Assembly (NCBI RefSeq): GCF_003019035.1
Contig: NZ_CP027447.1
DNA from: Escherichia coli
GTDB lineage: Bacteria; Pseudomonadota; Gammaproteobacteria; Enterobacterales; Enterobacteriaceae
DNA length: 64,000 nucleotides
Reading direction: 5' to 3' (one strand)
Shown here: positions 40,157 to 47,763 of the stretch, one piece after another
Layout: the number at the start of each line of letters is the position of its first letter
Position numbering within the stretch: position 1 is the stretch's first letter
Notes under the pieces: model-generated
What the model saw: only the letters and a program-made list of their open reading frames with translations
Told to the model about the DNA's origin: nothing
Databases searched by the model: none
Position numbers and translations under genes: made by a program

Positions 40157-40879
40157 ATGAACACTGAAAATCTCCTTAAAAACAATAACGTAGACCACGA
40201 AGAGATCGCTAAATTTGAAGCCGTCGCCTCCCGCTGGTGGGATCTTGAAGGTGAGTTCAAACCGCTGCACCGCATTAACCCGCTGCGTCTGGGCTATATT
40301 GCCGAGCGTGCTGGCGGTTTATTTGGCAAAAAGGTGCTCGATGTCGGTTGTGGCGGCGGCATTCTGGCCGAGAGTATGGCGCGCGAAGGCGCGACGGTGA
40401 CCGGTCTGGATATGGGCTTTGAGCCATTGCAGGTGGCAAAGTTGCACGCGCTGGAAAGTGGCATTCAGGTAGAGTACGTGCAGGAAACCGTGGAAGAGCA
40501 CGCGGCAAAACATGCCGGGCAGTATGACGTGGTGACCTGCATGGAGATGCTGGAGCACGTGCCCGATCCGCAGTCAGTGGTCAGAGCCTGTGCGCAACTG
40601 GTGAAACCGGGCGGCGATGTCTTTTTCTCGACGCTTAACCGCAACGGCAAGTCATGGCTGATGGCGGTAGTCGGCGCAGAATATATTTTGCGCATGGTGC
40701 CTAAAGGTACACATGATGTGAAGAAGTTTATTAAACCGGCAGAATTGCTGGGCTGGGTGGATCAGACAAGCCTTAAAGAGCGGCATATGACTGGGCTGCA
40801 TTACAACCCGATCACTAATTCCTTTAAGCTCGGCCCCGGCGTGGATGTGAACTATATGCTGCATACGCAGAATAAGTGA
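40157..40879 (+). CDS. ubiG: UbiG, ubiquinone biosynthesis O-methyltransferase
   Basis: 240-aa ORF with SAM-binding [13 protein letters not shown] motif; N-terminus [16 protein letters not shown] differs from the recalled K-12 N-terminus, the rest is near-identical. Confidence 0.93.
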
Positions 40880-40884
40880 GGTTG

Positions 40885-41015
40885 TTGTTTGGATTCAGCC
40901 GACGACCGAGCCAAGCCTGATGCGACGCTTGCCGCGTCTTATCAGGCCTACAAATGCTCCCGTAGGCCAGATAAGGCGTTTACGCCGCATCCGGCAACAG
41001 TGCCGGTCAGACAGC
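40885..41015. repeat. REP/BIME palindromic units between convergent ubiG and yfaL
   Basis: gcctgatgcgacgcttgccgcgtcttatcaggcctacaa... / ggccagataaggcgtttacgccgcatccggc palindromes; spurious ORFs 40889..41236 and 40920..41114 lie in it. Confidence 0.7.
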
Positions 41016-41017
41016 GA

Positions 41018-44000
41018 TTACCATTTCACTGTCATCGACAAAAACCCTGCCGTCTGGGCAAAATCATCACTCCCTTTCTGCCACGCCACGCTACCACGCA
41101 GCGAAACTCGCTGACTGATATTGCCCGTTATTCCCACTTTTATTTCACCCCGTTGCTTCACCGCATCGTCACTGATAGTGCTGCCATCTTCTTCAATTTC
41201 CGTCGCATGGGGATCGTGATAATAATTCAGATCTAATGTTGGTATGACACCAACCGCGGTACGCCATTCGCTGTGTAAACCCAGCCGCGTTTGAATATCA
41301 TCACCCTGCGATTGTGACACCCGCGCATGGTTAGCAGCGGTGAAATCATCCTGCTGCACGCCCTGATAAATCACCTGCGCCTGTGGTTCAATCACCACTC
41401 CATGCCCCGGTAACCACTGATACCCGGCTTCCAGCGAGGCGATAATCCCCGATGAGTGGTAATGATCCGCGCCATCTTCATGTTCGGAAACATCATTGTT
41501 AAACCACGCGTATTGCAGCCAGCTATCCAGCCAGGCCCCCTGCTTCTGATTACCGTGCTGGAACCAGCTTGAGGTCAGACCAACGGCATAACCGTGGTTC
41601 TGGTTATCGGCGCGAGTTCCGGTCATATTCGAGCGGCTGTCGCCCTGGTTATCACTGTAGCCACCAACCGCCCCAAGCATCCACTCGCCATCCATGCCCC
41701 AGCGCCCGCTAAACAAGTCGCCGCTAAGCTGCACCGTAGAAGTGTCTTCATGCTGAGCCAGTTGCCCCGCTGCTGTGTAATGATAATCTCCGCCGATAAC
41801 ACGTAAATTCAGCGTCTGACCATCGCCACCAGCGTGATCGCGTCGCTCCATCACAAATGCCTGATTTGCCGCACGTAGGTTATTGAGATAGCCACCAACT
41901 TTGGCATTCAGCACCGGCTGGTAGGCAGGCGTAGGGGCTGGAGCCGGGTCGGGTGTTGGATCAGGATCCGGCGTAGGATCAGGATCTGGAGTCGGGTCTG
42001 GATCGGGCGGCGATGGTGGCGTTACTTCTTGCGATCGCAGATACCAGTCGTTGTTATCTTCCACCAGCGTGTAGTCATACGCTCCCATATTGACGTAGCC
42101 GCTGCCCGCCAGACTGAACTGCGCATTGTTTTGAAATTGCGTTGGATCGGCTGCGAAATCAACCACTTTAATGCCCGTAGATGTCGGCTCACCAATACCC
42201 GTAATGGGATTAATTACCACGGTCGTGTTGCCAGCAGTATTACCGTTCAACACCAGTTGGTCGCTTGCCGAGTCATCGCCGTTTAATTCGCTGTCGAGAA
42301 ACAACGTACCGCCACCGGTGTAATCACCGTTTACCGTGAGCGTGTCGCCAGCAACGCCATTTTGCAGACTGACAGCACCGGAAGTATTAGTTAGATCACC
42401 ATTGACCGTCACGTCTGAAAGATAAGTCAGGCTGTCAGTTTCAAGGTTGGTATTAAGCTCGCCTGTCAGCGTCACACCATCGGTGGCATTCACCAACGTA
42501 CCGTCGCCGCTAAACAGCGAGGCATCCAGCGCCTGGTTCGTATCCTGCTGCGTCAATCGCAACACAGTACCATCGGTTATGTCGATATCGCCGCCAGAGG
42601 TGGCATCGATTGAACGAATATCCTGATTTTGCCCGGTTTCAAAAACACCGTCTTCCCCCACCCACAGTGAAGAAACATAAGGAATAATATTCTCCGCTTC
42701 ACCTTTTAGCGTTCCGTCCTCCACACGTACCGCAGACGTCGCAGTGCCGCTGGCGGTCAACTCCAGCGTCCCGCCGCCACTTTTAGTCAACGTGCTTACG
42801 CTATCCAGTTGTTGCCCGGTACTATCCGCCATCAACCCGCCCCATTGCGTATCTACGCCATCCTCAACGTGTATTTCGCCATCAGCGCGCATTTCAATAT
42901 TCCTGCCCTGACCTGTTGTAGCCGAGCGAGTGTCAACATCAGTCGTCACATCCATTTCACTGTGTTGTTGGGGATCTGTGAAGATCACTGAACGGTTGTA
43001 ACTTGTGTCCCCCAATTGCGAATTATCGCTGACTTCAAGCGTACCGGAGGCGATTTGCGTATTACCGAGATAACCGTTGTTATTCGCCAGCGTTACGCGC
43101 TGATCCCCCGCATTAATGACGACATAAACGCCATTCTGGCTGGCATCACTGCCGCCAATATGTAAATCATCGCCACTGCTGATATCAACGACATCATTAC
43201 TACCAATCACTGTCCCCCCGCTGCCGCTGATTTGCAGACCGTCATTGTATGAGCTATCGCCATCCCAGGTGGTGAAATCAGAGAGATCCAATACTCCGCC
43301 ATTTAGCACGATCGATTGCGGATCGCTCTGCATTGCCCGTAAATCGGCCTGATTCCCCGCCAGCGACAATACGGCGTTATCTTCCACCACAATATCGCCG
43401 GTTAATGCCATCGACTGCGCCCCTGTCAGGAGATAGCTGCCATCTTGCGCTACCGTCAACTGTCCTTCACCCTGAATCGAGCCGGAAAAACCGCCCTGGT
43501 TTACGGTAACATTGCCGCCTGCGTCGATATTCAAAATGCCATTAGCAAAACCGGTTAATGAGTGCACAAACGTTTGTTGTGTATTGCCAACATTCAGTTC
43601 TGCCTGATACTCAGAATGAACAGTGCTGCCGACCATCAGACCAAAGCAATCCTGCGGATCGCTCTGACAGTGCGTGTCGCCGACATTCATTAACTCATCG
43701 CTGCGCCCCAACGTCACCTCGCCATTCTGGATACTCATCTCGCCGGTAAACGCATTATTGTCGGCATTGAGGACTAACTCTCCCGCTCCCTCTTTAACGA
43801 TGACTCCCGTTCCGGCAAGAGAATCAATCGCGCCATCGTTGCTGGTATTGCCTATTACCAGCGTTTTATCGGCGGCAATGTTAAATTCAGCCACACTATG
43901 ACCGATATACATAAAGCCCCCCGCCGCTGCCGTCGCCGAATGGTCATATCCCGAGGCGCTGTTATTTTCATCAATCATCACACCATTGTTTTGGTCATAA

Positions 44001-44782
44001 TTATCATCAACAGAAATATCAATAAGATACGGGGATGTGGTGCTGCTGGTATAAATTGCTCCGCCATAACCTTCTGCATAGTTATTGGTAAAGGAGGTAT
44101 TATTAATTATCGTTTTTCCTGAAAGATGTGTGTTATCCGTACTATTATCCGTAACATCAATGGCACCGCCGTCCCCATCACTATAGCTGGTTGATGTATA
44201 TGCCTGATTATTATCAAAAATGACATCACTTAAATAAATATCATTATTGATAGAATAAATAGCGCCACCTTTACCATCATTGGCGATATTATTCGCAAAT
44301 ATTGCATTAGTGATATTTAAATCCATATCACCGGCATCGTTTGTTCCCGCAGAATAGATTGCTCCGCCATAGCCTCCTGCAACGTTACTGTCGAAAATAA
44401 CATTCGCAAGATTTATCATTGAGTTTTCTTTAGCAAAGATAGCTCCGCCATTATTATATTCGCCACTAATCGAGTTATTAGCAAACAGGGTCATCCCTGT
44501 TTCATTTTGTGGTGATATCGTAAATTCAGCACTTTGCTGCAAAAATACGGCGCCACCGCTGGCATTATTGGCCATACCCGAAAAAATCACCCATTGCCCA
44601 TCGGCGATGCTCCAGTCCTGCGTAATGCCTGAAAGGCTTTGCCTGCTGGCCTGACAACTCGCTTTGATATCATATCCCTGGCATGAATCCAAAACCTCCG
44701 CGACACTGTTAACAGAGAAAAGAGATGCAATCATTGACGGGAGTAAAGATAAATACTCCTTGCGTAGAAAAATAATCCGCAT
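41018..44782 (-). CDS. yfaL: YfaL-type autotransporter adhesin (type Va secretion)
   Basis: 1254-aa ORF; N-terminal signal, Gly/Asn/Thr-rich passenger repeats, proline-rich PPSPPDPDPTPDPDPTPDPDPTPDPAPAPTP linker, C-terminal beta-barrel ending ...MTVKW. Confidence 0.88.
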   Translation of the reverse strand: MRIIFLRKEYLSLLPSMIASLFSVNSVAEVLDSCQGYDIKASCQASRQSLSGITQDWSIADGQWVIFSGMANNASGGAVFLQQSAEFTISPQNETGMTLFANNSISGEYNNGGAIFAKENSMINLANVIFDSNVAGGYGGAIYSAGTNDAGDMDLNITNAIFANNIANDGKGGAIYSINNDIYLSDVIFDNNQAYTSTSYSDGDGGAIDVTDNSTDNTHLSGKTIINNTSFTNNYAEGYGGAIYTSSTTSPYLIDISVDDNYDQNNGVMIDENNSASGYDHSATAAAGGFMYIGHSVAEFNIAADKTLVIGNTSNDGAIDSLAGTGVIVKEGAGELVLNADNNAFTGEMSIQNGEVTLGRSDELMNVGDTHCQSDPQDCFGLMVGSTVHSEYQAELNVGNTQQTFVHSLTGFANGILNIDAGGNVTVNQGGFSGSIQGEGQLTVAQDGSYLLTGAQSMALTGDIVVEDNAVLSLAGNQADLRAMQSDPQSIVLNGGVLDLSDFTTWDGDSSYNDGLQISGSGGTVIGSNDVVDISSGDDLHIGGSDASQNGVYVVINAGDQRVTLANNNGYLGNTQIASGTLEVSDNSQLGDTSYNRSVIFTDPQQHSEMDVTTDVDTRSATTGQGRNIEMRADGEIHVEDGVDTQWGGLMADSTGQQLDSVSTLTKSGGGTLELTASGTATSAVRVEDGTLKGEAENIIPYVSSLWVGEDGVFETGQNQDIRSIDATSGGDIDITDGTVLRLTQQDTNQALDASLFSGDGTLVNATDGVTLTGELNTNLETDSLTYLSDVTVNGDLTNTSGAVSLQNGVAGDTLTVNGDYTGGGTLFLDSELNGDDSASDQLVLNGNTAGNTTVVINPITGIGEPTSTGIKVVDFAADPTQFQNNAQFSLAGSGYVNMGAYDYTLVEDNNDWYLRSQEVTPPSPPDPDPTPDPDPTPDPDPTPDPAPAPTPAYQPVLNAKVGGYLNNLRAANQAFVMERRDHAGGDGQTLNLRVIGGDYHYTAAGQLAQHEDTSTVQLSGDLFSGRWGMDGEWMLGAVGGYSDNQGDSRSNMTGTRADNQNHGYAVGLTSSWFQHGNQKQGAWLDSWLQYAWFNNDVSEHEDGADHYHSSGIIASLEAGYQWLPGHGVVIEPQAQVIYQGVQQDDFTAANHARVSQSQGDDIQTRLGLHSEWRTAVGVIPTLDLNYYHDPHATEIEEDGSTISDDAVKQRGEIKVGITGNISQRVSLRGSVAWQKGSDDFAQTAGFLSMTVKW
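41930..42012. repeat. Short imperfect tandem DNA repeat inside yfaL encoding the (D/P)(P/T) linker
   Basis: Repeated ggatc(a/c/t)gg(a/c)gt(a/c/g)gg-type units visible across about 80 bp. Confidence 0.7.
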
Positions 44783-45315
44783 ATTAATCTGACCATCATT
44801 TTCTATAAGACGGCATATTTAATCGCATTATACGATATGGGTTATTTTTCTTTTGTAAATTGTTCAACCCGGTGCAATGGCTATTTTGTTATTATTTCAT
44901 GAATAATATCAGTGCGTCATAATTCAAGTTAATCACCTTAAGGGATATCAGTTATGTTTAAACTGAATTAAAGTAATGAATAATTTTCTTATAATATAAG
45001 GTAAATTAACAAAATGGCTTCGCATTTAACAACAACCGAAGAGAAAACAACCATTTCGACATCAACAATCGCTTACATTCGCTTATATATTGACCATAAC
45101 TGATACATCAGATTATGTGATGACTCGTGCTTAGATCAATTTTTGCAATCATTAGCCAAAAGATTAATAAACCATCTATATCAATTTATCTAACCTATTC
45201 TTCCGTTCAAGAAATCGCCGAACAGTTATTTTTAACAAATTTTTCTCTTCCCATTGACTTTCCCGGACACCTTGTCTGACCTAAGGTGCGCGAAAGCCAC
45301 TTTTTCCTTCCTGAG

Positions 45316-45324
45316 TTATCCACA
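45316..45324 (+). promoter_or_regulatory. DnaA box in the nrdAB promoter region
   Basis: Exact TTATCCACA consensus. Confidence 0.7.
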
Positions 45325-45353
45325 AAGTTATGCACTTGCAAGAGGGCCATTTT

Positions 45354-45400
45354 CACACTATCTTGCAGTGAATCCCAAACATACCCCCTATATATAGTGT
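45354..45400 (+). promoter_or_regulatory. Pair of NrdR boxes in the nrdAB promoter
   Basis: CACACTATCTTGCAGTG and CCCCTATATATAGTGT, partial palindromes of the acaCwAtATaTwGtgt type, centres about 31 bp apart and about 90 bp upstream of the nrdA ATG. Confidence 0.65.
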
Positions 45401-45477: not shown

Positions 45478-47763
45478 ATGAATCAGAATCTGCTGGTGAC
45501 AAAGCGCGACGGTAGCACAGAGCGCATCAATCTCGACAAAATCCATCGCGTTCTGGATTGGGCGGCAGAAGGACTGCATAACGTTTCGATTTCCCAGGTC
45601 GAACTGCGCTCCCACATTCAGTTTTATGACGGTATCAAGACCTCTGACATCCACGAAACCATTATCAAGGCTGCCGCAGACCTGATCTCCCGTGATGCGC
45701 CGGATTATCAGTATCTCGCCGCGCGCCTGGCGATCTTCCACCTGCGTAAAAAAGCCTACGGCCAGTTTGAGCCGCCTGCGCTGTACGACCACGTGGTGAA
45801 AATGGTCGAGATGGGCAAATACGATAATCATCTGCTGGAAGACTACACGGAAGAAGAGTTCAAGCAGATGGACACGTTTATCGATCACGACCGTGATATG
45901 ACCTTCTCTTATGCTGCCGTTAAGCAGCTGGAAGGCAAATATCTGGTGCAGAACCGTGTGACCGGCGAAATCTACGAAAGCGCCCAGTTCCTTTATATTC
46001 TGGTTGCCGCGTGCCTGTTCTCGAACTACCCGCGTGAAACGCGCCTGCAATACGTGAAGCGTTTTTACGACGCGGTTTCCACATTTAAAATTTCGCTGCC
46101 GACGCCAATCATGTCCGGCGTGCGTACCCCGACTCGTCAGTTCAGCTCCTGCGTACTGATCGAGTGCGGCGACAGCCTGGATTCCATCAACGCCACCTCC
46201 AGCGCGATTGTTAAATACGTTTCCCAGCGTGCCGGGATCGGCATCAACGCCGGGCGTATTCGTGCGCTGGGTAGCCCGATTCGCGGTGGCGAAGCGTTCC
46301 ATACCGGTTGTATTCCGTTCTATAAGCATTTCCAGACAGCGGTGAAATCCTGCTCTCAGGGCGGTGTGCGTGGCGGTGCGGCTACGCTGTTCTACCCGAT
46401 GTGGCATCTGGAAGTTGAAAGCCTGCTGGTGTTGAAAAACAACCGTGGGGTGGAAGGCAACCGCGTGCGTCATATGGACTACGGGGTACAAATCAACAAA
46501 CTGATGTATACCCGTCTGCTGAAAGGTGAAGATATCACTCTGTTCAGCCCGTCCGACGTACCGGGGTTGTACGACGCGTTCTTCGCCGATCAGGAAGAGT
46601 TTGAACGCCTGTATACCAAATATGAGAAAGACGACAGCATCCGCAAGCAGCGTGTGAAAGCCGTTGAGCTGTTCTCGCTGATGATGCAGGAACGTGCGTC
46701 TACCGGTCGTATCTATATTCAGAACGTTGACCACTGCAATACCCATAGCCCGTTTGATCCGGTCATCGCGCCAGTGCGCCAGTCTAACCTGTGCCTGGAA
46801 ATCGCCCTGCCGACCAAACCGCTGAACGACGTCAACGACGAGAACGGTGAAATCGCGCTGTGTACGCTGTCTGCTTTCAACCTGGGCGCAATTAACAGCC
46901 TGGATGAACTGGAAGAGCTGGCAATTCTGGCGGTTCGCGCACTCGACGCACTGCTGGATTATCAGGATTACCCGATCCCGGCCGCTAAACGTGGAGCGAT
47001 GGGGCGTCGTACGCTGGGTATTGGTGTGATCAACTTCGCTTACTACCTGGCGAAGCACGGTAAACGCTACTCCGACGGCAGCGCCAACAACCTGACGCAT
47101 AAAACCTTCGAAGCCATTCAGTATTACCTGCTGAAAGCGTCTAATGAGCTGGCGAAAGAGCAAGGCGCGTGCCCGTGGTTTAACGAAACCACTTACGCGA
47201 AAGGGATCCTGCCGATCGATACCTATAAGAAAGATCTGGATGCCATCGCTAATGAGCCGCTGCATTACGACTGGGAAGCACTGCGTGAGTCAATCAAAAC
47301 GCACGGCCTGCGTAACTCCACGCTTTCTGCTCTGATGCCGTCAGAGACTTCTTCGCAGATCTCTAACGCCACTAACGGTATTGAACCGCCGCGTGGTTAC
47401 GTCAGCATCAAAGCGTCGAAAGACGGTATTCTGCGCCAGGTGGTGCCGGACTACGAGCATCTGCACGACGCCTATGAGCTGCTGTGGGAAATGCCGGGTA
47501 ACGATGGCTATCTGCAACTGGTGGGTATCATGCAGAAATTTATCGATCAGTCGATCTCTGCTAACACCAACTACGATCCATCACGTTTCCCGTCAGGAAA
47601 AGTGCCGATGCAGCAGTTGCTGAAAGACCTGCTCACCGCCTACAAATTCGGGGTCAAAACGCTGTATTATCAGAACACCCGTGACGGTGCTGAAGACGCA
47701 CAAGACGATCTGGTGCCGTCAATCCAGGACGATGGCTGCGAAAGCGGCGCATGTAAGATCTGA
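45478..47763 (+). CDS. nrdA: Ribonucleoside-diphosphate reductase 1 alpha subunit
   Basis: 761-aa ORF MNQNLLVTKRDGSTERINLDKIHRVLDWAAEGL... Confidence 0.97.
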   Translation: MNQNLLVTKRDGSTERINLDKIHRVLDWAAEGLHNVSISQVELRSHIQFYDGIKTSDIHETIIKAAADLISRDAPDYQYLAARLAIFHLRKKAYGQFEPPALYDHVVKMVEMGKYDNHLLEDYTEEEFKQMDTFIDHDRDMTFSYAAVKQLEGKYLVQNRVTGEIYESAQFLYILVAACLFSNYPRETRLQYVKRFYDAVSTFKISLPTPIMSGVRTPTRQFSSCVLIECGDSLDSINATSSAIVKYVSQRAGIGINAGRIRALGSPIRGGEAFHTGCIPFYKHFQTAVKSCSQGGVRGGAATLFYPMWHLEVESLLVLKNNRGVEGNRVRHMDYGVQINKLMYTRLLKGEDITLFSPSDVPGLYDAFFADQEEFERLYTKYEKDDSIRKQRVKAVELFSLMMQERASTGRIYIQNVDHCNTHSPFDPVIAPVRQSNLCLEIALPTKPLNDVNDENGEIALCTLSAFNLGAINSLDELEELAILAVRALDALLDYQDYPIPAAKRGAMGRRTLGIGVINFAYYLAKHGKRYSDGSANNLTHKTFEAIQYYLLKASNELAKEQGACPWFNETTYAKGILPIDTYKKDLDAIANEPLHYDWEALRESIKTHGLRNSTLSALMPSETSSQISNATNGIEPPRGYVSIKASKDGILRQVVPDYEHLHDAYELLWEMPGNDGYLQLVGIMQKFIDQSISANTNYDPSRFPSGKVPMQQLLKDLLTAYKFGVKTLYYQNTRDGAEDAQDDLVPSIQDDGCESGACKI

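Follow-up and report, generated by a model that had tools for sequence, protein, structure and literature searches.

The autotransporter adhesin YfaL of Escherichia coli carries a proline-rich spacer, and we consider it likely that rare in-frame gains and losses by slippage have produced, at a slow tempo, a series of alleles that differ in the length of this linker. We analysed the linker in a stretch of 64,000 nucleotides of E. coli DNA (the window; contig NZ_CP027447.1) and compared it with alleles from complete E. coli genomes.

The yfaL gene and the position of the linker

The open reading frame at 41018-44782 on the minus strand is a classical (type Va) AIDA-I-family autotransporter adhesin, YfaL/EhaC. 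It matches the NCBIfam equivalog profile NF007285, 'AIDA-I family autotransporter adhesin YfaL/EhaC', with 2746 bits against a cut-off of 1459; the match is full-length (residues 1-1254 on profile positions 1-1250) and, together with the location between ubiG and nrdA, it bears out the gene name given in the preliminary description. The locus order ubiG-yfaL-nrdA is that of annotated E. coli genomes (ubiG adjoins yfaL in one annotated genome), yfaL is the RefSeq annotation of the region in all matches listed, and the region is present in 5,419 of 5,426 complete E. coli genomes. The Pfam domains of the protein are PATR, Chlam_PMP, AC_1 and the autotransporter beta-domain, and its N-terminus, MRIIFLRKEYLSLLPSMIASLFSVNSVAEV, looks like a candidate Sec signal peptide. 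The locus and the region around the linker comprise the following features:

40157-40879, plus strand: ubiG (UbiG equivalog), flanking yfaL
41018..44782, minus strand: yfaL/ehaC coding sequence, 1254 aa (open reading frame, NCBIfam NF007285 and Pfam)
41087..41806, minus strand: autotransporter beta-barrel domain, residues 993-1232 (Pfam PF03797, E = 5e-33)
41861..41905, minus strand: predicted alpha-helix, residues 960-974, filling the barrel pore (AlphaFold, fragment residues 170-184)
41927..42031, minus strand: proline-rich linker, Q918-P952, 35 aa, length-variable, QEVTPPSPPDPDPTPDPDPTPDPDPTPDPAPAPTP (translation)
42065..42397, minus strand: autochaperone AC_1, residues 796-906 (Pfam PF18883, E = 4.8e-18)
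45478-47763, plus strand: nrdA (NrdA equivalog), flanking yfaL

The linker segment is delimited by GACTGGTATCTGCGATC and GCYTAYCAGCCGGTG, and its 35 residues hold 17 of the 32 prolines of YfaL. The AlphaFold model (pLDDT 94) has beta-strands over residues 791-921, coil over 922-952 and a helix over 960-974, followed by the barrel, whose strands are modelled at high confidence. The beta-helix carries on from AC_1 as far as the WYLRS motif (residues 913-917), and the linker is modelled as coil with a pLDDT of 77-88. Two features of type Va autotransporters are present: a beta-helical passenger ending in an autochaperone (AC_1, PATR, Chlam_PMP and the modelled strands), and a C-terminal 12-stranded beta-barrel with a helix in its pore (PF03797 and the model). 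The modelled coil lies between AC_1 and the beta-domain, in agreement with the earlier placement of the linker between passenger and beta-barrel.

The closest solved structure to the C-terminal part of YfaL is the AIDA-I transport unit (PDB 4MEE), which aligns with the beta-domain and the end of the autochaperone at E = 6.9e-27, including the GAYDYTL...WYL motif. The YfaL sequence GAYDYTLVEDNNDWYLRSQ aligns with the corresponding AIDA-I stretch of 4MEE, and the YfaL model matches that structure with a TM score of 0.91 and an rmsd of 2.0 A. The spacing from WYL to the helix, however, is about 11 residues in AIDA-I, which is without a proline-rich insertion, and 43 in YfaL. The proline-rich stretch of YfaL is therefore an insertion at this joint.

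A similar layout is found in TibA, a self-associating autotransporter of enterotoxigenic E. coli, whose proline-rich domain separates the junction/autochaperone region from the membrane-embedded domain (PMC3835316). In YfaL, too, the coil (residues 918-952) comes after the autochaperone/junction region and before the pore helix and the barrel. TibA is a different protein, glycosylated and with another passenger, and its segment has about 50 residues; the likeness is one of layout, since similarity between low-complexity segments would mean little. Proline-rich segments of this kind are common in related autotransporters: of 149 diverse homologous C-terminal domains, 76% contain at this joint a stretch of 15 aa or more with a proline content of 25% or more, and tandem repeats of their own are frequent among them. 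We found no published series of allele lengths for the proline-rich segment of TibA, and a literature search recovered no paper combining 'YfaL' with 'proline-rich'; a survey of autochaperones mentions EhaC, though not the linker (PMC5767081).

The linker consists of some 35 residues without regular secondary structure, made up of Asp-Pro and Thr-Pro dipeptides; it follows the final rung of the beta-helix of the autochaperone (WYLRS) and precedes the pore helix. Its composition, its position and the analogy with related proteins suggest an extended polyproline-like tether, which would hold the passenger at a set distance from the barrel in the outer membrane; with some 0.3 nm for each residue, 21-39 residues would span roughly 6-12 nm. 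Linker length may affect the display of the YfaL passenger, as proposed in the preliminary description. Since the pLDDT of the coil is fairly high, the linker might pack against the passenger instead of extending freely.

The repeat in the window's allele

On the minus strand, 41927-42019 reads CCA CCA TCG CCG CCC (GAT CCN GAY CCN ACN CCN)x3 GAC CCG GCT CCA GCC CCT ACG CCT. It translates to PPSPPDPDPTPDPDPTPDPDPTPDPAPAPTP, identical to the peptide that the preliminary description had given for the linker. The interval named there, 41930-42012, lies within the repeat stretch and, read along the coding strand, leaves out its first 7 nt and its last 3 nt. The elements of the repeat are:

41951..42004, minus strand: three 18-bp units, each encoding DPDPTP, residues 927-944, GATCCAGACCCGACTCCA / GATCCTGATCCTACGCCG / GATCCTGATCCAACACCC
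41958..42009, plus strand: tandem array of period 18, 2.9 copies, 79% match, score 62 (Tandem Repeats Finder)
41976..41986, minus strand: longest perfect direct repeat, GATCCTGATCC (11 bp), first copy
41958..41968, minus strand: second copy of GATCCTGATCC, 18 bp downstream of the first

The Tandem Repeats Finder run confirms the imperfect short tandem repeat that had been described. The array is free of indels, has a 6-bp sub-period within the period of 18, and is the only one scoring at least 50 in the 64-kb window. Its unit length is a multiple of 3 and it lies within a coding region, as expected of an in-frame coding tandem repeat. The repeat is visible only by Tandem Repeats Finder and direct reading; a seeded repeat search (7-bp seed, 10-bp minimum) on 41850-42100 found nothing. 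The repeat stretch is overlapped by no other open reading frame of at least 60 aa on either strand, and an Rfam scan of 40800-45400 gave no match within it; a role of the plus strand at the repeat was ruled out on these two grounds. The same scan gave sub-threshold REP/naRNA4-like matches downstream of yfaL.

The peptide repeat is clearly non-random, with three perfect DPDPTP units. At the DNA level the units are identical at 13-15 of 18 positions (72-83%), and all differences fall on synonymous third positions. Measured against random back-translation of the peptide, the window's allele has 28 of 36 lag-18 matches (29.1 +/- 1.7 expected) and a longest perfect direct repeat of 11 bp (11.7 +/- 3.2 expected). 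Its DNA repeat is no stronger than its peptide repeat forces. The pair of GATCCTGATCC copies is the likeliest slippage substrate of the window's allele, to judge from the sequence, and slippage products predicted at this pair were also observed, namely a duplication in strain CFS3246 and a deletion of the O169:H41 type.

The periodicity of the peptide gives the DNA short direct repeats at spacings of 6 and 18 bp. Slippage during replication, or recombination through the short homology of such repeats, would occasionally add or remove 6 or 18 bp in frame, and these occasional gains and losses would therefore lead to a series of linker-length alleles in E. coli. The window's allele would be an old one, whose three units have come to differ through synonymous drift.

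The retention of the peptide repeat in spite of synonymous drift suggests selection on the linker peptide. The linker could then be a functional motif, whether a ligand or antibody epitope, an element of a secretion hairpin or a release site at acid-labile Asp-Pro bonds, with its length under selection. Asp-Pro bonds are indeed acid-labile. Proline-rich repeats of other adhesins bind host proteins or vary among alleles, polymorphic examples being R1/R2 of pertactin (PMC8931430) and the side loops of Pmp proteins (PMC11166332). We nevertheless regard this reading as unlikely. Across the 149 homologues the joint keeps its composition and not its sequence (PEPT, PDPT, PEPVPPP, PEPEKPG and others). 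A physical tether therefore fits better than a specific binding motif.

Linker-length alleles across E. coli

An identical repeat number in all alleles, which the preliminary description had named as contrary to its proposal, is not what we found: the linker occurs in ten lengths, from 21 to 39 aa, in 5,419 complete E. coli genomes and the protein database. We measured linker length relative to K-12 in two systematic samples of 60 genomes each. In both samples together the linker had the K-12 length in 80 genomes; it was 18 bp shorter in 26, 6 bp longer in 7, 24 bp shorter in 3, and 12 and 36 bp shorter in a single genome each. Both samples also included one and the same genome with a large deletion. 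Variant counts given from outside the two samples are those among the matches listed, and hence lower bounds. Every indel among the E. coli alleles falls within the repeat and has a length divisible by 6 bp, which agrees with the proposal that length changes without a break of the frame. The deletion of one strain extends into the autochaperone. Among the matches listed, the only frameshift allele in more than 5,400 genomes is that of GPEC60, where a 7-bp duplication inside the repeat shifts the frame of yfaL.

Several length differences amount to whole units on matched flanks. The 18-bp unit CCCGATCCTGACCCAACA is present in one copy in strain 90-1, in two copies in hundreds of genomes (e.g. 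600468) and in three copies in at least 7 genomes (e.g. CFIAFB20190157 and MLI107), with 0 mismatches among the three alleles over the 539 bp that they have in common. Alleles with the flank haplotype of K-12 (about 550 bp, 1 mismatch) show a perfect 18-bp duplication in CFS3246, an 18-bp deletion in UTME-3, a 6-bp gain (GATCCT) in WP2-S18 and a 6-bp loss in UMNF18 and 5 porcine ETEC strains. Copy number in the sister alleles differs on the same flanks, as in a coding repeat of variable copy number. Recently duplicated alleles carry perfect direct repeats of 20-38 bp, far beyond the length that the peptide forces (P <= 0.007); the direct repeats of the window and K-12 alleles are no longer than that. 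A synthetic K-12 slippage product with an additional 18 bp was found in genomes. A synthetic K-12 allele minus unit 2 had no match at 99% identity or more in the genome search, and a synthetic four-copy allele of the B1 type (perfect repeat) had no exact match in 5,426 genomes. Clean unit changes on identical or nearly identical flanks are the signature of replication slippage.

The variant lengths might be sequencing or assembly errors in a region of low complexity, as some of them are singletons (UTME-3, WP2-S18 and 90-1; the allele of VTB97022v is another singleton) and the frameshift of GPEC60, taken from a 'CM' chromosome record, could reflect an indel error of long reads. The probability of this is close to negligible: the in-frame variants are exact multiples of 6 bp at the boundaries of repeat units, homopolymer errors of long reads do not yield clean 18-bp steps, and several of the variants recur in independent genomes (three-copy alleles in at least 7, the porcine 6-bp loss in at least 6, the O169:H41 type in at least 21 and two-copy alleles in hundreds).

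The alleles fall into deep families, the K-12/window type ending in ...DPEPTP or DPAPAPTP and the B1 type ending in ...DPIP, with many flank substitutions between them. Because these substitutions accompany them, the length differences between the deep families may spread by homologous recombination instead of arising on the spot. It could be argued that recombination does no more than shuffle old allelic types and that the repeat has no mutational role. The main length classes do go with distinct flank haplotypes (29 flank differences between 33E and 600468, and 33 between KGu016 and K-12), and the passenger upstream is strongly dimorphic, with about 77.5% or at least 95% nucleotide identity and almost nothing between, which indicates that old alleles persist at yfaL. 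Import of a foreign allele, however, would carry flank substitutions along, whereas several variants equal their parent plus or minus one exact unit, and over some 540-570 bp of flank they differ from it by 0-1 substitutions. Moreover, the duplicated units are identical at synonymous sites, and direct repeats of up to 38 bp flank every indel. We therefore hold recombination alone to be rather unlikely as an explanation.

Tempo of change and comparison with other repeat loci

All 37 genomes with at least 99.7% identity to the window's region have one linker length; strains with the window's allele include SCU-301 and SMS-3-5. On the K-12 background, 1,916 genomes match the region at 99% or more without a gap, against at least about 10 length variants, so that about 99.5% of the K-12-type genomes have the same linker length. 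No length variation was seen among the K-12 laboratory derivatives or among the O157:H7 isolates sampled. Among 22 clusters of protein backbones at no more than 2% divergence, none is mixed for linker length, and the closest pair of proteins with different linker lengths differs at no fewer than 28 residues. The length change is slow and mostly fixed within lineages. The stricter statement that length never varies within a lineage was dropped, because genome-level searches recovered rare unit-sized variants on identical flanks. Alleles with perfect repeats have more variants per genome than the others (about 2% against about 0.5%, both rough lower bounds), and the rate of slippage appears to depend on the perfection of the DNA repeat.

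The earlier description of the repeat as prone to slippage is supported, with qualifications. Sister alleles show exact unit changes on identical flanks, but the window's own allele is degenerate, and since its 37 relatives show no variation, its proneness to slippage is an extrapolation from the sister alleles.

Hypermutable repeats that switch length or expression within a clone are the hallmark of contingency loci of phase or antigenic variation, and the yfaL repeat could be read as one: it is a tandem repeat within a surface adhesin gene, signals of positive selection have been reported for yfaL among E. coli genes (PMC9110714), and the GPEC60 duplication does shift the frame. This reading is very improbable and is largely refuted already. 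A long perfect tract is absent, the imperfect units of the window's allele sharing at most an 11-bp perfect repeat, and the four-copy perfect-repeat allele is missing from the genomes searched. The unit changes are all in frame and coding and give no ON/OFF switching; with units of 6 and 18 bp, slippage cannot switch the frame. Because most lineages are uniform, including that of the window's allele, the repeat is not a phase-variation switch. The simple-sequence contingency loci of Neisseria and Haemophilus are similar in that repeats mediate slippage in surface-protein genes. They have, however, long perfect tracts with units of 1-7 bp and frequent shifts of frame or promoter spacing, whereas the units of YfaL are 6 and 18 bp long, few, mostly imperfect, in frame and rarely changed.

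A parallel to the slow in-frame change at YfaL is offered by the R1/R2 repeats of Bordetella pertactin, a classical autotransporter in which the copy number of proline-rich in-frame repeats varies among alleles. Variation of the pertactin repeats is described as far slower than phase variation (PMC8931430), and its tempo and in-frame character are the same as in YfaL. The differences are that R1/R2 are described as loops on the beta-helix passenger and not as a linker after the autochaperone, that the repeat peptides differ, and that the pertactin variation is tied to vaccine-era immunity, for which no counterpart is known in YfaL. Variation in linker length is commonplace in surface proteins of this class and reveals no new mechanism.

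One might imagine linker length as an adaptive ruler matched to the thickness of the O-antigen or capsule of each lineage, with the passenger just clearing the polysaccharide and the perfect-unit (B1-type) alleles favoured for quick re-tuning after a serotype switch; we think this quite improbable. YfaL/EhaC is a nearly universal adhesin of E. coli, and the biological importance of the finding is modest. The protein is also a popular scaffold for surface display, and the natural tolerance of 21 to 39 residues at the joint is useful for the engineering of display constructs. Sized by PCR, the length classes offer an inexpensive marker that follows E. coli lineages in part. Finally, the alleles offer a natural comparison within one peptide repeat, where degenerate DNA is stable across deep lineages and perfect 18-bp units gain and lose copies.

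The YfaL linker and its coding repeat

The repeat lies in a single open reading frame, and an ORF scan found no second ORF of at least 60 aa overlapping it. The features concerned are:

41018..44782, - strand: yfaL, 1254 aa, the single ORF containing the repeat
41927..42031, - strand: proline-rich linker, residues Q918-P952, 35 aa
41951..42004, - strand: units 1-3, 18 bp each, encoding DPDPTP, residues 927-944

The protein is a full-length match to the NCBIfam equivalog NF007285, 'AIDA-I family autotransporter adhesin YfaL/EhaC' (2746 bits, cut-off 1459), and contains Pfam passenger repeats, an AC_1 autochaperone (796-906) and an autotransporter beta-domain (993-1232). Its neighbours in the window, UbiG and NrdA, are the usual chromosomal setting, and the region is annotated yfaL in every one of the RefSeq E. 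coli matches listed. YfaL is included among the autotransporters of the enterobacterial adhesin group (PMC9289746) and among genes reported to carry signals of positive selection (PMC9110714). Directly downstream of its stop codon, the ubiG-yfaL intergenic region (40880-41034) gives three overlapping sub-threshold Rfam matches to naRNA4/CssrE (best 45.4 bits, gathering score 59.5), which look like REP-type palindromic elements.

Translation of 42019-41927 on the - strand gives PPSPPDPDPTPDPDPTPDPDPTPDPAPAPTP, identical to the peptide claimed in the preliminary description, whose coordinates for the repeat, 41930-42012, lie inside this encoding stretch but clip a few bases at either end. The peptide is in itself far from random, the 35-residue linker holding 17 of the 32 prolines of YfaL. 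Tandem Repeats Finder, the check proposed there, reports an array at 41958-42009 (period 18, 2.9 copies, 79% matches, score 62), the sole tandem array scoring at least 50 within the 64-kb window. The units of the window allele, GATCCAGACCCGACTCCA, GATCCTGATCCTACGCCG and GATCCTGATCCAACACCC, encode the same peptide and differ at most synonymous third positions. As a null for DNA periodicity we used random back-translation of the linker, with codons weighted by the gene's own usage or by a general E. coli table. The observed 28 of 36 lag-18 matches compare with an expected 29.1 +/- 1.7, and the longest perfect direct repeat, GATCCTGATCC of 11 bp, with 11.7 +/- 3.2 bp. The peptide fully accounts for the DNA periodicity of the window allele, and neither test gives a sign of recent DNA duplication in it. 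The densest cluster of GATC (Dam) sites of the window, at 41959-42036 (6 sites per 100 bp, mean 4.9 per kb), probably arises as a side effect of the GAT-CCN coding of Asp-Pro.

A structure prediction for residues 791-1254, based on 70 aligned diverse homologues (mean pLDDT 94.4, pTM 0.89), has beta-strands to residue 921, no secondary structure over 922-952 (pLDDT 77-88) and then a short strand, a helix at 960-974 and the barrel strands. Among solved structures the AIDA-I transport unit 4MEE comes nearest (TM 0.91, rmsd 2.0 A; sequence E = 6.9e-27), and in the alignment to it YfaL GAYDYTLVEDNNDWYLRSQ is paired with AIDA-I GAYDYTLQK...WYLTSH. The distance on to the helix is ~11 residues in AIDA-I and 43 in YfaL, so the proline-rich stretch is an insertion at the joint of the autochaperone end and the pore helix. 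The Pfam domains, the model and the 4MEE alignment all bear out the place between passenger and beta-barrel proposed for it.

Linker length alleles in E. coli

The linker region was found in 5,419 of 5,426 complete E. coli genomes; it is absent from seven, and one match sits on a record classed as plasmid. Lengths were surveyed in two systematic samples.

Linker length relative to K-12 in two samples of 60 genomes each
0 bp: 80/120 genomes
-18 bp: 26/120 genomes
+6 bp (the window's class): 7/120 genomes
-24 bp: 3/120 genomes
-12 bp: 1/120 genomes
-36 bp: 1/120 genomes
Large in-frame deletion: 1 genome, drawn in both samples

In the aligned representative alleles all indels fall within the repeat and are multiples of 6 bp. 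Targeted searches, together with the protein database, contribute further linkers of 31, 37 and 39 residues, which brings the number of lengths seen to ten (21 to 39 residues), all in frame. Repeat number is clearly not identical among alleles, as the preliminary claim of length variation had it. The commonest linker among protein-database representatives (...DPDPTPDPDPSRDPDPTPDPAPTP, 57 representatives) has Ser-Arg instead of Thr-Pro in the second unit, which could reflect two substitutions or a compensated frameshift; O157:H7 has Thr-Gln there (CCG -> CAG).

The alleles fall into two families. Family B, whose linkers end ...DPIP (O121 strains and many commensals), bears a perfect 18-bp unit, CCCGATCCTGACCCAACA. 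A three-copy family-B query matches hundreds of genomes at 96.9% (exactly 18 gap columns, no mismatch over 557 bp) and at least 7 genomes at >=99.7%; three perfect copies also occur on a slightly different flank in at least four genomes. Strain 90-1 carries a one-copy form with zero mismatches over 539 bp, found with one extra substitution in at least three further genomes, and no four-copy allele was found in the genome collection. That such length classes are artefacts of assembly is scarcely credible. In family A (K-12, O157, B2 strains and the window) the units are degenerate, and variants on the K-12 flank haplotype show just 1 mismatch in ~550 bp. Unit 2 is perfectly duplicated in CFS3246, unit 1 is lost in UTME-3, GATCCT is gained in WP2-S18 and lost in UMNF18 and five other porcine strains. 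The CFS3246 allele is, save for one substitution, a slippage product that we had predicted beforehand and searched for. The O169:H41-type allele, carried by at least 21 genomes, is the E118-type allele without unit 2 and matches the product expected of slippage at the 11-bp repeat; their flanks differ at 17 positions, which makes this change older.

Recently duplicated alleles contain perfect direct repeats of 20-38 bp, far above the peptide-forced length (P = 0.0003 to 0.007); the same test found none beyond that length in the K-12 allele and the diverged 33E allele. Together, unit-sized changes, bounding direct repeats, otherwise unchanged flanks and synonymously identical units are the marks classically expected of replication slippage or of unequal exchange at short homologies, a process read here from allele structure. 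Recombination alone, which would bring in the length differences from other lineages, is unlikely: several variants stand on haplotypes 0-1 substitutions apart, and the linker is thus an indel hot spot relative to its flanks.

The tempo is nevertheless slow. All 37 genomes listed at >=99.7% to the window's 581-bp region, SMS-3-5 included, have one linker length, and no 6-bp or 18-bp variant of the window allele was found among the matches listed, at ranks where it would be expected. For the window allele, the proneness to slippage proposed for this site is extrapolated from sister alleles. At least 1,916 genomes give ungapped matches to the K-12 region at >=99%, and at least about 10 records are variants on the K-12 background; in family B, at least roughly 16 of about 700 genomes are not two-copy. 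In a set of 108 full-length YfaL proteins, not one of 22 backbone clusters (<=2% divergence) mixes linker lengths. Phase variation, in which slippage would switch expression, is highly improbable, as slippage by units cannot switch the YfaL reading frame and the linker is quieter by orders of magnitude than a contingency locus.

In L009 (GPEC60-12-649, NZ_CM160084.1) yfaL is frameshifted by a 7-bp duplication within the repeat (TGACCCA) and annotated as a pseudogene; the duplication could be real out-of-frame slippage or a long-read assembly error. L006 (VTB97022v, NZ_CP178670.1) has an in-frame deletion of ~56-60 residues joining ...FAADPT (near residue 881) straight to PDPDPTPDPEPTP of the linker, with the join appearing to use an ADPT/DPT match. 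The deletion takes out the autochaperone end including the WYL motif, and the gene is still annotated intact (1194 aa).

Proline-rich segments at the same joint

Residues 791-1254 served as query against 1.84 billion representative proteins, and the 149 best matches (30-56% identical) were aligned. In 76% of these, the conserved WYL is followed at the same joint by a segment of 15 residues or more with at least 25% proline, and in 33% by one of 20 residues or more with at least 35% proline. Many have tandem repeats of their own (PEPVPPP x5, PDPDPx, PEPEKPG, PVEPPVN and others); examples among the database proteins are P0136 (PEPVPPP x5), P0219 (PEPEKPG repeats) and P0238 (a 17-residue repeat, ITDPIEPIDPSMPEVGP, x3-4). 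Judging from these alignments, the segment may represent a module general to this autotransporter subfamily that has received little discussion. Composition and position are kept and sequence is not, which would fit a physical tether expanded independently many times; a specific motif rather than a spacer is accordingly a doubtful reading, slightly more so than recombination alone.

We consider it probable that the linker is an extended tether whose periodic peptide makes short direct repeats in the DNA, at which slippage would on rare occasions generate in-frame length variants that are then maintained within lineages. The window allele would be an old, synonymously diverged, stable form, and linker length might affect passenger display. 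Assuming textbook polyproline-II geometry, in which each residue adds about 0.31 nm, 21-39 residues would span an estimated 6-12 nm, roughly.

TibA is reported to contain 'an additional proline-rich domain' between its junction region and membrane domain (PMC3835316), the same layout as in YfaL. In pertactin, copy number in two proline-rich repeat regions varies by allele, at a pace reported to be far below that of phase variation, and a role as a polyproline stalk has been proposed (PMC8931430). Among known proline-rich repeat autotransporters the YfaL linker is an unremarkable case; among the papers searched, none was found that links YfaL with its proline-rich linker or the length polymorphism of that linker.

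More distant Escherichia-like proteins have linkers of at least 50 residues of PPxPPA repeats. In P0113, P0116 and P0117, YfaL-like proteins from metagenome assemblies (69-70% identical), linkers of 35-55 residues carry an extra repeat, PPxPPA/PPTPP, before a short DPDPDPTPDP(I/T)P tail, a pattern that shows that a second type of repeat has expanded independently at this joint.

The passenger itself (42100-44782, - strand) is sharply dimorphic in E. coli: relative to the window passenger DNA, 1,244 genomes are at least 95% identical, 4,173 about 77.5%, and 8 lie between. The C-terminal 450 residues keep ~90-99% protein identity across passenger classes, and it appears that two old types of passenger have a single translocator in common.
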